IMG/VR virus record: IMGVR_UViG_3300037249_000373
Coordinates: 2,876-66,875 of that record
Origin: a virus
Lineage: Duplodnaviria; Caudoviricetes
Direction: 5' to 3' (one strand)
DNA: 64,000 nt
The notes under the pieces are model-generated. The model made no database searches, had not been told where the DNA came from, and saw only the letters and a program-made list of their open reading frames with translations. Positions 6,031-19,320 of the stretch are shown here, piece by piece (positions within the stretch are counted from its first letter, which is position 1; each line of letters begins with the position of its first letter). The position numbers and the translations under genes are program-made.

Positions 6031-6073
6031 AATAAGCTAGAACAGAGAAATCTGTTCTAGCTTATTTTTTTTT
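6031..6073 (+). terminator. intrinsic terminator
   Basis: AATAAGCTAGAACAGA-gaaa-TCTGTTCTAGCTTATT plus T-run. Confidence 0.85.
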
Positions 6074-6093
6074 AATAGAGCTAAAAGTTCATA

Positions 6094-6106
6094 AGGGCTA
6101 CGCCCT
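6094..6106 (+). promoter_or_regulatory. TAC-loop hairpin promoter candidate
   Basis: AGGGC-TAC-GCCCT, identical to 3172-3184. Confidence 0.65.
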
Positions 6107-6178
6107 GAATAAATAATAAGAAGCATGATATAAATGCTGATTCTATGATTTCATTTACCCAGATTTAAGGAAAATATC

Positions 6179-14163: not shown

Positions 14164-14176
14164 AAGGCTACGCCTT
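14164..14176 (+). promoter_or_regulatory. TAC-loop hairpin promoter candidate upstream of the replication module
   Basis: AAGGC-TAC-GCCTT. Confidence 0.6.
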
Positions 14177-15393: not shown

Positions 15394-15793
15394 TTTAGAT
15401 AAACTAATGTTCTTTAATGATTTACAGAAAAAACAAACAGAAATCATTAAAGTAATGTATAAGGATATAGATTCATTATTATTCTTATGGCAACAATATC
15501 ATAAAGAATTATTCAAGAAACCAGAGATATTTGAAAATATCTTACAGCATCTTGATGAATGGAAAACTGATTTTTTAAATAAAACTACTATATTTCCGTC
15601 TGCAAGCACACCTCAGGAATCACTTGTAAATCACCTTAACAATCTAACTATCTATAAAGAGGCACTTGAAAAAGAACAAAACTTAGATATAGAAAGTTCT
15701 CTCAAAGATTCATTAGATACTGCTATAGGTATCAAGTTTGAAATGAATCTGTGTCTACCTACTAGAGAGGAGATTTTAAATGGTAGTGTATAG
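15368..15793 (+). CDS. hypothetical protein
   Basis: ORF between helicase and polymerase. Confidence 0.6.
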   Translation: MEYTSMKSNLDKLMFFNDLQKKQTEIIKVMYKDIDSLLFLWQQYHKELFKKPEIFENILQHLDEWKTDFLNKTTIFPSASTPQESLVNHLNNLTIYKEALEKEQNLDIESSLKDSLDTAIGIKFEMNLCLPTREEILNGSV

Positions 15794-17720
15794 TGGTAAA
15801 CCTGATAAACTGGTTTTAATAAAACCAAAACAGTTAGTAACAGATAAGATTAAACAATACTATGGAGATAACTTCATAGGATTGGATATACCCGATAATG
15901 GCAAAGCCAGAAAGGATTTTATAACAGACCTGAAAGAAACTATACCAGCAATAACAAAGTGCATTATATGTGCTGATACTGAAATGTTTAAAGCATTATG
16001 TCATGTAAAGAAGACAAGTGGATTAGATGGTATACCATGTAAAACAGATCTTGGTATCCCAGCATTTATTATGCCTAACTGGATTAGTGTTATATACAAC
16101 CCTGTAGAGGTACAGGCAAGATTAGGTTATATAAACCAAAAAATAAATGAATACTTAAATGGTACTTACAAGCAGATAGGAGATGATATTGTACATAGCT
16201 GTATATTTCCTAAGAACAGACTGGAAGTAAAACAGTTTTTAGCAAGTTTACATAATTACAATGCACTTACTTGTGATATAGAAACAGCAAGTAATCATTT
16301 TATTAATCTTGAACCAAAAGAAGAAGAGAAGTTTAAGAGTGCTACGCACCATTTCAGTAACAGATTGTATTCTATAGCATTTGCATGGGATAAACATAAT
16401 GGAGGTGCTTTCTTATATGCTAATGATTATAAAGATTTATTACTGGATTTCTTTAGAACCTATAAGGGTAAGGTAATTTATCATAATGCATCGTTTGATA
16501 TTACACAGTTAATATATCATCTGTTTATGCTGGATTTAGAAGACTATACCAATATGCTTACAGGATTGCATTGTATGTGCAGAGACATAGAAGATACTAT
16601 GCTGATAGCATACCTTGCAAAGAATAGCTGTAATAAGCCTGATATAGGTCTTAAGCCATTATCGCATGAATACAGCGGTAACTATGCAGAAGATGTATCT
16701 GATGTTACCAAAGTAGAACCAAAGAAATTACTTACATACAACCTTAAAGATGTTTTATCTACCTGGTTTGTATATGAAAAATACTATCCAAAGATGGTAG
16801 AAGATAATCAGGAAGAATTATATAAAACACTGTTTCTACCTAGTCTAAAGACTATCATTGAAACTCAATTAGTTGGTTTAAGAATTAAAAGAGATAAATT
16901 AAAAGAACTGTCTGATGAACTGCAAACCAAGTATGAATCATTACTTAATACAGTTAAGAATAATCCTAAAGTAAAACAGCTGGAGAAGATAACCAGAAGT
17001 GAATTATGCAGTAAATATAACAAAGAACATAAGAAGAAACAGAAGATACCAGATGATTTTACAAAAGAGAGTTTATTTAATCCAGGCAGTCCAAACCAGG
17101 TAGCAAGATTGTTATATGATTTATATGCATTACCTGTACTGGATTTAACTGATAAGGGCTGTCCAGCATGTGGTACTGATACAATTAATAAATTAATTAA
17201 TCATGCTAAAGATGATGAAACTAAAGAATTACTGGAAACACTTGCTAAATTAAGTGCTGTAAGTAAAATACTATCATCATTTATACCGGCATTCGATAGA
17301 ACACCTGTTATGAAAGATGGTACTAAAGGCTTATATGGTTCATTTAAACTTGGTGGTACTAAGTCAGGTAGACTTGCAAGTGCTAATCCTAACCTACAGA
17401 ATCTTCCTTCTACAGGAAGTCCTTATGCTAAACCAGTAAAGAAAATATTTGGTGCACCTAAAGGATATGTATTTATAGGTTCTGATTTCTCATCTCTTGA
17501 AGACCGTATAAGTGCATTAACTACTAGAGATCCCAATAAAGAACTTGTTTATTTAGAAGGATTTGATGGTCATTGTTTAAGAGCTTATTCATATTTTGGT
17601 AATCAAATGCCTGATATACATATGGCAGAGGAAGGGGATACTGTATATAAGGTAACACTCGATGATGGTACTGTTATTTACTGTAACGAAGAGGAATTAA
17701 AGGAATTACAAAATGATTAA
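15780..17720 (+). CDS. family A DNA polymerase, N-terminal part (3'-5' exonuclease to motif A)
   Basis: Exo 'TCDIETAS', 'YHNASFDI' and 'YNLKDV'; 'TKSGRLASANPNLQNLP'; motif A 'GSDFSSLEDR'; ends after 'GHCLRAYSYFGNQMPDI' without motifs B/C. Confidence 0.93.
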   Translation: MVVYSGKPDKLVLIKPKQLVTDKIKQYYGDNFIGLDIPDNGKARKDFITDLKETIPAITKCIICADTEMFKALCHVKKTSGLDGIPCKTDLGIPAFIMPNWISVIYNPVEVQARLGYINQKINEYLNGTYKQIGDDIVHSCIFPKNRLEVKQFLASLHNYNALTCDIETASNHFINLEPKEEEKFKSATHHFSNRLYSIAFAWDKHNGGAFLYANDYKDLLLDFFRTYKGKVIYHNASFDITQLIYHLFMLDLEDYTNMLTGLHCMCRDIEDTMLIAYLAKNSCNKPDIGLKPLSHEYSGNYAEDVSDVTKVEPKKLLTYNLKDVLSTWFVYEKYYPKMVEDNQEELYKTLFLPSLKTIIETQLVGLRIKRDKLKELSDELQTKYESLLNTVKNNPKVKQLEKITRSELCSKYNKEHKKKQKIPDDFTKESLFNPGSPNQVARLLYDLYALPVLDLTDKGCPACGTDTINKLINHAKDDETKELLETLAKLSAVSKILSSFIPAFDRTPVMKDGTKGLYGSFKLGGTKSGRLASANPNLQNLPSTGSPYAKPVKKIFGAPKGYVFIGSDFSSLEDRISALTTRDPNKELVYLEGFDGHCLRAYSYFGNQMPDIHMAEEGDTVYKVTLDDGTVIYCNEEELKELQND

Positions 17721-18426
17721 AGAATTAAAAGATGGCACTAAATGGATAAAAGCCAAATACTATGAGGGTGGAGACCTCAAAGGAATATGGACTGCTACAT
17801 TTAAGATAGATGGTATCAGATGTATAAGAGGTAGTGATGGAAAGATTTACTCAAGAGACAGTAAACCTTTAAAGCATACTGAATGTATGAAAGGTAATGA
17901 CTGTGAGTTCTACCATAAAAACTGGAATACATCTGTATCTATTCTTTCTACTGAAGAAGATACCATCATACCTACACCTGATATGTTCTATTCATTAGAT
18001 CCAATAGATAAGAGATTATATATAGGATTACTGGATAACCCTACAGAAACAGACATACATAACATGTTACTTAATGCTCTAACTATGGGTTATGAAGGTC
18101 TTGTATTAAGACAAAATTCTAAATGGTTAAAGGTAGTACCTGTTAAGTATGCTGATATATTCATACAGGATATAAAAGAAGGAGAAGGCAAGTATAAAGG
18201 CTTGGCTGGAAGTATTATTACTTCTCTTGGTTCTGTTGGTTCTTTTGAATTACAGGAAGGTATGACAGATAAGCAATTCAGAAAAGAACTACTGGATAAT
18301 AAAGCCAAGTACATAGGTAAGGTAGCACAAATAGGCTATAGAGAACTTACCTGTACAGGCAAATTTAAATTCCCTAAGCTTGCAAGGCTACGCCTTGATA
18401 AAGACTATGAGGATTTACCTGTATGA
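17713..18426 (+). CDS. minimal ATP-dependent DNA ligase
   Basis: Motif I 'FKIDGIR' (KxDGxR), 'SRD', motif IV 'GYEGLVLR', motif V 'WLKV', OB-fold tail 'GKFKFPK'. Confidence 0.85.
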   Translation: MIKELKDGTKWIKAKYYEGGDLKGIWTATFKIDGIRCIRGSDGKIYSRDSKPLKHTECMKGNDCEFYHKNWNTSVSILSTEEDTIIPTPDMFYSLDPIDKRLYIGLLDNPTETDIHNMLLNALTMGYEGLVLRQNSKWLKVVPVKYADIFIQDIKEGEGKYKGLAGSIITSLGSVGSFELQEGMTDKQFRKELLDNKAKYIGKVAQIGYRELTCTGKFKFPKLARLRLDKDYEDLPV

Positions 18427-18638
18427 AAGAGTATATACCACTGTTTAATGATCTCATAAGAGTTCATATGACTGAAAATAAAATTATTATTAAAAGAAAC
18501 CCGGAGATTAACTTCATTGAAATAGCTAATATCCTAAAAGGTATTGCTATAGAGCTGGAGTCTAAACAACCTGACTGGGATACAGCAATAATAGGAGTTA
18601 ACTATGAAGATAGAACAGACTACAGTGATGGAGTATAA
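18423..18638 (+). CDS. hypothetical protein (71 aa)
   Basis: GAGG RBS; ATGA overlap with the ligase stop. Confidence 0.65.
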   Translation: MKEYIPLFNDLIRVHMTENKIIIKRNPEINFIEIANILKGIAIELESKQPDWDTAIIGVNYEDRTDYSDGV

Positions 18639-19320
18639 CTTACATAAGATTAACTCAATTAAACAGAAATATCCTGAATTAAGACAGGCAAGTAAGCCTA
18701 TTACATTTGCTTTAACTTATTCAGGTACAGCCTATACGTTGCAGAAAGACCTTAACTTACCTGAAGAACAAGCCAAATTTGTTGAAAACAAATACCATGA
18801 ACTATATAAAGTAAGTGACAACTGGGTTAAGCAACATATAGATAAAGCCTGTAAAGATGGATATGTTACTTGTGCTTTTGGTTTAAGGCTTAGAACACCT
18901 TTAATTCAAAGAGCTATTATGGGAGATAAAAAAACACTTAAAGAGGCAAGAGCAGAGGCAAGAACTGCTGGTAATGCTCTTGGTCAATCATGGTGTTTGC
19001 TAACTAACAGAGCCCTTAATGAAGTAATGGAGATAGTATGGAACAGTGAACATGCTACAGATATACTGCCATGCTGTGCTATACATGACGCTTTGTATTT
19101 CTTCATTAAAGATGATATTGAGTTAATTTCCTGGTTTAACAAGGTATTGATTAAAGCAATGTCCTGGCAAGAAGATCCTGAGATACAGCATGACAGATTA
19201 AAACTTACAAGTAGTCTTGATATATTCTACCCAGACTGGGCTCATCCTATTGAACTACCAAACAATGCTAGTAAAGAAGATATTATAAAGGAAGTAACCA
19301 ATGCGAAAAGTAACCAATGA
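18604..19320 (+). CDS. family A DNA polymerase, C-terminal part (motifs B and C)
   Basis: AGGAG RBS; motif B 'LRQASKPITFALTYSG'; 'RTAGNALGQS'; motif C 'IHDALYF'. Confidence 0.93.
   Translation: MKIEQTTVMEYNLHKINSIKQKYPELRQASKPITFALTYSGTAYTLQKDLNLPEEQAKFVENKYHELYKVSDNWVKQHIDKACKDGYVTCAFGLRLRTPLIQRAIMGDKKTLKEARAEARTAGNALGQSWCLLTNRALNEVMEIVWNSEHATDILPCCAIHDALYFFIKDDIELISWFNKVLIKAMSWQEDPEIQHDRLKLTSSLDIFYPDWAHPIELPNNASKEDIIKEVTNAKSNQ

Follow-up and report, generated by a model that had tools for sequence, protein, structure and literature searches.

A putative accessory-gene slot between the two genes of a family A DNA polymerase in an N4-like phage

Split phage polymerases and genes fractured by endonucleases are already known, and the usual view is that selfish elements left them behind as scars. 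In T4-related Aeromonas phages, the gp43A and gp43B polymerase cistrons are reportedly cut apart by a short element made of a stop codon, a ribosome-binding site (RBS) and a start codon. For the Aeromonas phages 44RR, 25 and Aeh1, the two chains of this split PolB were reported to form an active enzyme (Petrov, Karam and co-workers, as summarised in PMC2677866). The DNA polymerase of the N4-like Vibrio phages JA1 and VchO139-I is interrupted by HNH genes (PMC3670811), the OM43 phages MEP401 and MEP402 have PolA split in two genes, between which an unknown small open reading frame (ORF) lies (PMC10580990), and fractured genes that involve split inteins and an endonuclease of the free-standing type have also been described (Dassa et al. 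2009, PMC2677866). Here, we analysed a stretch of 64,000 nucleotides (hereafter the window; positions 2,876 to 66,875 of the IMG/VR virus record IMGVR_UViG_3300037249_000373), which makes up 64 kb of the 66.9-kb single-contig genome of a distant N4-like phage. A first reading of the sequence alone (the original prediction) had noticed in it a DNA polymerase split into two genes, here called PolN and PolC, with an ATP-dependent DNA ligase and a small ORF (ORF71) in the gap. Our main conclusion, to which we give a probability of about three in four, is that the replicative family A polymerase of this phage is built from the products of two genes, and that the gap between these genes is a recurring slot for accessory genes.

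One family A polymerase in two genes

The ORF list matches exactly the layout that had been described, in which two polymerase halves, the ligase and a 71-aa ORF follow one another with overlapping stops and starts:

15780..17720, + strand: PolN, the N-terminal polymerase subunit (646 aa), with the 3'-5' exonuclease, thumb and palm motif A, then a 32-aa tail
17622..17717, + strand: PolN tail (residues 615-646), conserved in broken relatives and absent from uninterrupted N4-type polymerases
17713..18426, + strand: minimal two-domain ATP-dependent DNA ligase (237 aa; PF14743, PHROG 114), carried as slot cargo
18383..18397, + strand: TAC-loop hairpin with a 6-bp stem, within the codons of ligase motif VI and 26 nt 5' of the ORF71 ATG
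18423..18638, + strand: ORF71, an orphan of 71 aa with its own GAGGA ribosome-binding site
18604..19320, + strand: PolC, the C-terminal polymerase subunit (238 aa), with a 15-aa head, fingers motif B and palm motif C

PolN overlaps the ligase by 8 nt, the ligase overlaps ORF71 by 4 nt (ATGA) and ORF71 overlaps PolC by 35 nt. The AGGAG that had been assigned to the C-terminal half is present 6 nt before the PolC ATG. The PolN and PolC ORFs lie 884 nt apart and in different frames, unlike the polymerases of N4, SP058 and Ea9-2, each of which is one continuous gene. Contigs from other samples and other studies run through the whole arrangement (X16 record 1 covers 15500-18884, and X2 record 29 covers 17564-18998), and the gene order PolN-ligase-ORF71-PolC is kept in four strain variants that are ~3% diverged, which argues that the split is not an assembly artefact.

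The two genes share a single polymerase between them. The Pfam profile PF00476, which has 381 positions, is covered at positions 10-201 by PolN and at positions 199-358 by PolC, and the PHROG 17 profile breaks at position 1056 in both. Since the halves are complementary in both profiles, the cut is clean, nothing is missing, and together the halves amount to one complete enzyme. PolN ends in '...GNQMPDI' followed by the 32-aa tail, and PolC starts with the 15-aa head and then 'INSIKQKYPELRQASK'. The break had been placed after motif A and before motif B of a family A polymerase, and both the profile coverage and the motif positions agree with this. In the PolN alignment (A3), the exonuclease residues D166/E168 (Exo I, DxE), N236/D240 (Exo II, Nx3D) and Y320/D324 (Exo III, Yx3D) are invariant, as are D569 and E574 of motif A; in the PolC alignment (A2), R27, K31, F35, Y39 and G41 of motif B and H161 and D162 of motif C are invariant. 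PolN, the ligase and PolC are all under strong purifying selection, with ratios of nonsynonymous to synonymous polymorphism (pN/pS) between strains of 0.04-0.05 for PolN (the partial genes of L160 and L161 left out), 0.03-0.06 for the ligase and 0.03-0.08 for PolC.

These data bear on whether one half might be a decaying remnant in a phage that uses another polymerase. An inactive or pseudogenised half was one of the cases that the original prediction had named as damaging to it. Instead, both halves are intact, pN/pS is 0.03-0.08 across the two and every catalytic residue is invariant; in addition, no second polymerase was found among the examined ORFs of the 66.9-kb genome. A decaying half is hardly credible. 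Because the split is conserved in many genomes, as described below, a polymerase of two chains is the most likely product. PolN, with the exonuclease, thumb and motif A, and PolC, with motifs B and C, would be translated as separate chains and would then reassociate non-covalently. The heterodimeric polymerase that had been suggested has good indirect support and is retained in this form, without the ligase as a member of the complex.

A fixed break site with varied contents

Using a PolC-anchored scan, we found the break at exactly the same site in at least 21 of the 77 assessable IMG/VR loci, and the same break, tail and head also occur in contigs from ENA and Logan. Among the 120 best stand-alone PolC clusters in a collection of 5.8 billion proteins, 67 have a head of 13-24 aa at the window's site, and 33 have a second, Pollock-type site. 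Conserved peptides, a PolN tail and a PolC head, accompany the break in every case. Broken loci measure between 79 and ~1260 nt from the stop of PolN to residue 16 of PolC; in the bare form found in L108, the entire spacer is TAA-GGAG-9 nt-ATG. Judged by its sequence, the window's break fits the intercistronic-cassette type of T4-like gp43A/B, in which two cistrons are separated by stop, RBS and start at a fixed site. The order of genes at some of the broken loci, taken from the surroundings of ligase homologues and of stand-alone PolC homologues, is as follows:

L073 and L074: PolN, 69-aa ORF, PolC
L076 and L077: PolN, 72-aa ORF, PolC
L075: PolN, HNH gene, 78-aa polymerase piece, 120-aa ORF, PolC
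L071 and L072: PolN piece, NUMOD4-HNH gene, PolN piece, ligase, 85-aa ORF, PolC
L008 to L010: PolN piece, HNH gene, PolN piece, ligase, 71/74-aa ORF, PolC

Elsewhere, the gap holds Tad2-like proteins (PF11195, E = 9e-25) at four loci (L113:5514-5981, L131, L134 and L139:5234-5974), Acb2/Tad1-hairpin proteins (PF24729, E = 1e-10) at three (L149:2008-2451 and L126/L129:5754-5957), NUMOD4-HNH endonucleases at a further three (L096, L120 and L125), several unknown ORF families, or nothing. Recognised anti-Thoeris and anti-CBASS-type protein families are included in this cargo. A survey for cargo at the site had been proposed from the outset and, made on IMG/VR contigs, it returned varied cargo at an identical break. 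The idea that the ligase is what splits the gene fails on this evidence, as L073, L076, L108 and others have the identical break with no ligase in the gap, and unrelated cargo or nothing in its place. That a non-selfish enzyme at a polymerase break is unusual is true as far as stated, but the window is one instance of a wider cargo-slot pattern. In the window gap itself, no homing endonuclease gene was found by Pfam or PHROG. Searches with type-B PolC or with tail-containing PolN segments found no cultured carrier of the slot. Stenotrophomonas phage C121 was considered as a full-length carrier and rejected because its alignment had simply extended into an unbroken gene.

Several of these loci show further irregularities. 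In L096 and L120, which bear HNH genes, the PolC frame (PolC region ~6040-6110) closes 33-38 residues past 'INSIK', which suggests a further interruption downstream. The spacer between PolN and PolC in L112 (5926-5973) and L122 (5927-5973) contains a GC-rich hairpin and then a T run, as in a terminator, and the halves may be transcribed separately there. In L010 (1825-3530), a second split divides the PolN part into an exonuclease ORF of 260 aa and a polymerase ORF of 310 aa, which would give four polymerase pieces in total unless there is a sequencing error. L012, on the contig shared with L075, has a 612-aa Thy1 (ThyX) gene with an HNH-domain intein (L012:2660-4498); in this phage the polymerase is doubly interrupted and the replication module is dense in mobile elements. 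The helicase upstream of the polymerase, a single 383-aa gene in the window, is called in L071 (1424-2606) as two ORFs of 209 and 174 aa.

In the unbroken enzymes of N4, SP058 and Ea9-2, only ~6 aa separate 'MPDI' from 'INSIK', and at that point the window has the 32-aa PolN tail, two inserted genes and the 15-aa PolC head. Tails and heads fall into two main types, each conserved within the type. Type A has the tail motif [FY]K[VI]T.DDG...EEL, which is found again in L008, L071, L073, L075 and L076, and the head MKIEEI[ST]..EYNV; type B has a longer tail, A[YF]K..VDG..IYFHS.EEI.Y.G, and the head ...V.S.S.V..SEHNV.R. In the AlphaFold model of PolN as a single chain, the tail forms strands at 622-626 and 632-636 and a helix at 637-643 (pLDDT ~77), and the segment 594-615 is disordered in this PolC-free model. 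The tail, modelled as a beta-hairpin and a helix, and the PolC head flank the cut and probably help to hold the halves together. A prediction of the complex between PolN 400-646 and PolC with ORF71 as partner gave a score of 0.00, with the fold of the partner uncertain, a result that speaks neither for binding nor against it. Extra peptides were also observed at the Pollock-type HNH site (Pollock, L002:2700-2889; Pylas, L001; L075:5700-5828; L094), where the upstream polymerase piece ends in the conserved peptide VYTVTIEG..HHI.DD.TI.YDGK.YTGEEFYD, which resembles the type-B tails of the window's site, and the downstream piece begins with a conserved [ST]ISIKK[VI]GNT head.

The ligase in the gap is complete, with a nucleotidyltransferase (NTase) domain and an OB domain, and is predicted to seal nicks. 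It had been recognised as a complete minimal ligase by its KxDGxR motif, and all nucleotidyltransferase motifs proved to be present, with the OB domain over the Pfam cut-off (PF14743, 36.7 bits vs a cut-off of 28) and an additional match to PHROG 114. Motif I reads KIDGIR, with K31 as the adenylated lysine, and in an alignment with 20 relatives (A1) K31, D33, G34, R36, E65, E128, G129, K140, R225, R227, D229 and K230 are invariant (motifs I and III-VI). The AlphaFold model has a pLDDT of 92.5 and a Foldseek probability of 1.00 to 2q2t, 6gdr, 6rar and 6dt1 (Chlorella virus, Lig E, Pmar and T4 ligases).

A single-protein query of IMG/VR with the ligase gave only matches of 24-31% identity, and close relatives were found through alignment-based scans. 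The ligase lies in the slot only in the window lineage, in L071/L072 and in L008-L010; in other N4-like relatives, a homologous ligase lies directly after the primase or 4-5 kb downstream of it (0.1-5 kb). The ligase tree places the copies from the slot together in one group (SH-aLRT 94), and this group sits inside a larger, well-supported one (98*) that also contains ligases encoded at other places; such a topology fits the family's own ligase having moved into the slot once. On this reconstruction, the slot of the window lineage would have received that minimal ligase plus the orphan ORF71.

The ligase might instead be a functional partner, so that PolN, PolC and the ligase form one complex whose assembly the gene order mirrors. 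Overlapping stops and starts couple these genes tightly; three lineages that have diverged from one another (the window, L071/L072 and L008-L010) all retain the order PolN-ligase-small ORF-PolC; and in lagging-strand maturation polymerase and ligase act in sequence. However, phages with the same break, tail and head have their ligase 0.1-5 kb past the primase or carry other cargo in the gap, and the tail and head are unaltered by the presence of a ligase. Since the position of the ligase varies, an obligate complex of polymerase and ligase is disfavoured. The original prediction had allowed for such a complex, and it found no support, most relatives placing the ligase elsewhere; we give a functional partnership a slim chance.

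ORF71 has no Pfam or PHROG match and no usable match in the ESM Atlas, and a phmmer search of 1.84 billion representatives returned as its sole real match its own variant with 96% identity. It could be argued that ORF71 and the ~70-aa analogues upstream of PolC serve as a third subunit, an assembly factor or a leader for translational coupling. In the window, L008, L071, L073, L076 and L148, the end of a small ORF falls at or within the start of PolC, and ORF71 is intact in 19 contigs. The small ORFs nevertheless have no detectable similarity to one another, none is present in L108, L112, L122 and L142, and constraint on ORF71 seems weaker than on its neighbours (pN/pS 0.25-0.37), although this value comes from only 5-6 substitutions. 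We regard a shared role of this kind as improbable, if somewhat less so than a ligase partnership.

The TAC hairpin at 18383, which had been suggested to drive the C-terminal half separately, exists (18383-18397, CAAGGC-TAC-GCCTTG) and is one of a genome-wide family. Its core, GGCTACGCC, occurs in 9 exact copies in the window vs 0.04 expected by chance, and these lie mostly upstream of + strand genes:

3174, 5545 (- strand), 6096, 6539, 10837, 14166, 18386, 22324 and 40016: copies of GGCTACGCC

Two copies are inside the 3' ends of genes, namely the ligase and the primase (22324), and the copy at 14166 precedes the helicase gene. The relative L071 has copies at equivalent places, before the helicase and in the primase 3' end, and a TAC-loop hairpin (GGAGC-TAC-GCTCC) stands at the entrance to its slot. 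These hairpins may be promoters or processing elements, and the one inside the ligase 3' end may also drive transcription. Scans for sigma-70 promoters and terminators gave results at or below shuffle expectation. An RNA contig that starts at 18418, right after the hairpin, was not used as promoter evidence since contigs cannot show transcript starts, and a gap in the coverage of the RNA runs at 17966-18376 was likewise not taken as evidence.

Splicing and the history of the break

A single-chain polymerase would be restored if the ligase ORF lay in a group I intron, or if the halves were joined by trans-splicing of a split intein. Introns with HNH genes do occur in the polymerase gene of relatives (the Pylas gene is annotated as a join, and L008 matches RF00028), and a related phage has the Thy1 intein. 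In the window, however, the sequence between the PolN stop and the PolC start is coding at every base, which leaves no room for a ribozyme core. A search of 17300-19000 with Rfam, including RF00028, gave no intron match and only noise at E up to 10. The absence of an intron signature that had been noted at the outset is borne out by this empty Rfam result and the all-coding gap. Rfam works on this gene family, because it detected the intron in L008 (5435-5591; RF00028, E = 7e-5, 33.8 bits, below the gathering score), beside an HNH_3 gene. In that locus, the HNH_3 gene cuts motif A exactly (DFSSL / EDRI), and no start codon is present at the junction for the polymerase piece downstream. RNA-library contigs cross both the PolN/ligase border (17622-17886) and the ORF71/PolC border (18418-18884) unspliced, and none of them has a joint that skips the insert; since these libraries may contain DNA, we take this as weak support. 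Moreover, the spacer of the bare form in L108 has just 9 nt.

For a split intein, Cys or Ser is expected as the first residue of the tail, which is His here, and the head ends in ...EYN, after which the next residue is Val, Ile or Leu and not Cys, Ser or Thr; the sequence after the head, L/V-H-x-INS, is conserved extein sequence. Tail and head together come to 47 aa vs ~130 aa for a Hint fold. The tail is presumably somewhat like the N-terminal strands of the Hint fold, but when ten tails were scanned against Pfam at permissive settings (E up to 10), no Hint or intein family came up, and the only matches, all sub-threshold, were to DUF7141 (E ~0.008, twice) and to Tudor/SH3-like pieces. Since the nucleophiles are missing, the two peptides total 47 aa and no Hint family is matched, a split intein is excluded. 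Overall, restoration of a single chain by either route is very unlikely.

A quick IQ-TREE analysis of PolC was made on 80 rows and 223 residues. On this tree, 10 changes are needed to explain the broken state, and starred branches force at least 5 of them; the window's clade (100*) contains 9 broken and 2 unbroken genomes, and the unbroken L078 groups with the window and L071 (98*). The tree does not separate gains of the break from losses, and the pattern fits a cassette that has repeatedly spread or been precisely lost. The cut would then be a splitting cassette of stop, RBS and start that recurs at a single, fixed position within the fingers subdomain of the N4-like polymerases and has been gained or lost several times, probably through homing by HNH enzymes or through recombination across the flanking polymerase sequence, which is conserved. 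As HNH genes sit in some of the slots, homing accompanied by co-conversion of linked DNA is a reasonable mechanism. The slot genes would be co-expressed with the replication genes via the overlaps of their stops and starts and via ribosome-binding sites of their own.

A bolder version of this proposal is that a possibly mobile cassette, consisting of the PolN tail, stop, RBS, start and PolC head, has made a protected slot for accessory genes in many N4-like phages, with the tail and head as a purpose-evolved non-covalent clasp. We advance it tentatively, as somewhat less than an even chance. If true, slot genes would be expressed alongside the replication genes, imprecise deletion of them would kill the phage, they would be transferable among diverged phages by HNH homing or by recombination via the motif A and B flanks, and the clasp between tail and head would make the split tolerable.

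Several points weigh against a two-gene polymerase with a recurring slot. The binding of PolN to PolC and the activity of the joined enzyme are deduced from sequence, the tail-head clasp from conservation and a single-chain model, and homing by the HNH genes of the slot is likewise a deduction. The PolC tree was obtained by a quick method on 223 residues, with sampling skewed to relatives of the broken forms. The RNA-library contigs may come from contaminating DNA, and transcript ends are not visible in them. Some of the breaks in IMG/VR could in principle be assembly errors; this is disfavoured because the stop-RBS-start layout, the tail and the head are shared.

The phage and its relation to known systems

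The polymerase pieces of the window have 38-57% protein identity to those of Schitoviridae such as N4, Ithacavirus, Pollock and Ea9-2, and a 4917-aa ORF, of the size of a virion RNA polymerase, lies on the opposite strand. Downstream of PolC are a PD-(D/E)XK exonuclease and then the primase. The sequencing runs that bear the window come from 13 studies and are nearly all bovine gut metagenomes, and no near-identical DNA was found in cultured phages.

In the literature searched, a cut that recurs across a large part of the Schitoviridae, its tail and head peptides, and ligase or anti-defence cargo inside a polymerase gene appear to be undescribed. If the two-gene polymerase with its slot holds, it would mean that new accessory and counter-defence genes can be sought in N4-like phages by a simple rule of position, namely between PolN and PolC; it would provide a natural minimal peptide pair that may reassemble a split family A polymerase, and an example of an essential gene that shelters its passengers. 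For annotation, paired 'DNA polymerase' fragments in such genomes would not be pseudogenes.

The window's ligase is of a known kind. The ligase of Chlorella virus PBCV-1, bacterial Lig E and the ~250-aa ligases of 52-57-kb Erwinia, Escherichia and Pectobacterium phages are alike in having NTase and OB domains with motifs I, III, IV, V and VI, and the window ligase has 39-43% identity to those of the latter phages. Its 237 aa make it shorter than the ligases with solved structures, whose closest chains have 256-304 aa.

For the break itself, fractured genes with split inteins resemble the window in that an intervening gene separates the two halves of a gene in metagenomic DNA of phage origin, and in that the cut ends bear additional peptides. 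In contrast, the window has no splicing nucleophiles and no detectable Hint domain, and its peptides are of 32 and 15 aa; because they are so short and lack both features, covalent rejoining is not expected. In the OM43 phages, too, a family A polymerase is split, and a small ORF lacking annotation sits between its two genes; no endonuclease or intron was recognised. These phages belong to an unrelated, Zobellviridae-like lineage for which no diversity of cargo is described, and the likeness is one of gene layout. In gp43A/gp43B, an essential replicative polymerase is likewise carried in two cistrons, and the gap reportedly holds a free-standing homing endonuclease in some phages only. Those polymerases are of family B rather than A and belong to a different virus family, and neither conserved tail or head peptides nor cargo of a non-selfish kind, for example a ligase or genes against host defences, are described for them. 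The proposed homing and co-conversion at the window's site parallel a proposal made for T4-like gp43. In JA1, VchO139-I, Pollock, Pylas and Shigella phage B2, the same gene, in the same virus family, is interrupted near motif A. Their HNH insertions lie elsewhere, at PolN residues ~537, 573 and 593-598, and some are annotated or detectable introns, whereas the window's break falls between PolN residue 614 and PolC residue 16, with no endonuclease and with cargo of a cellular type.

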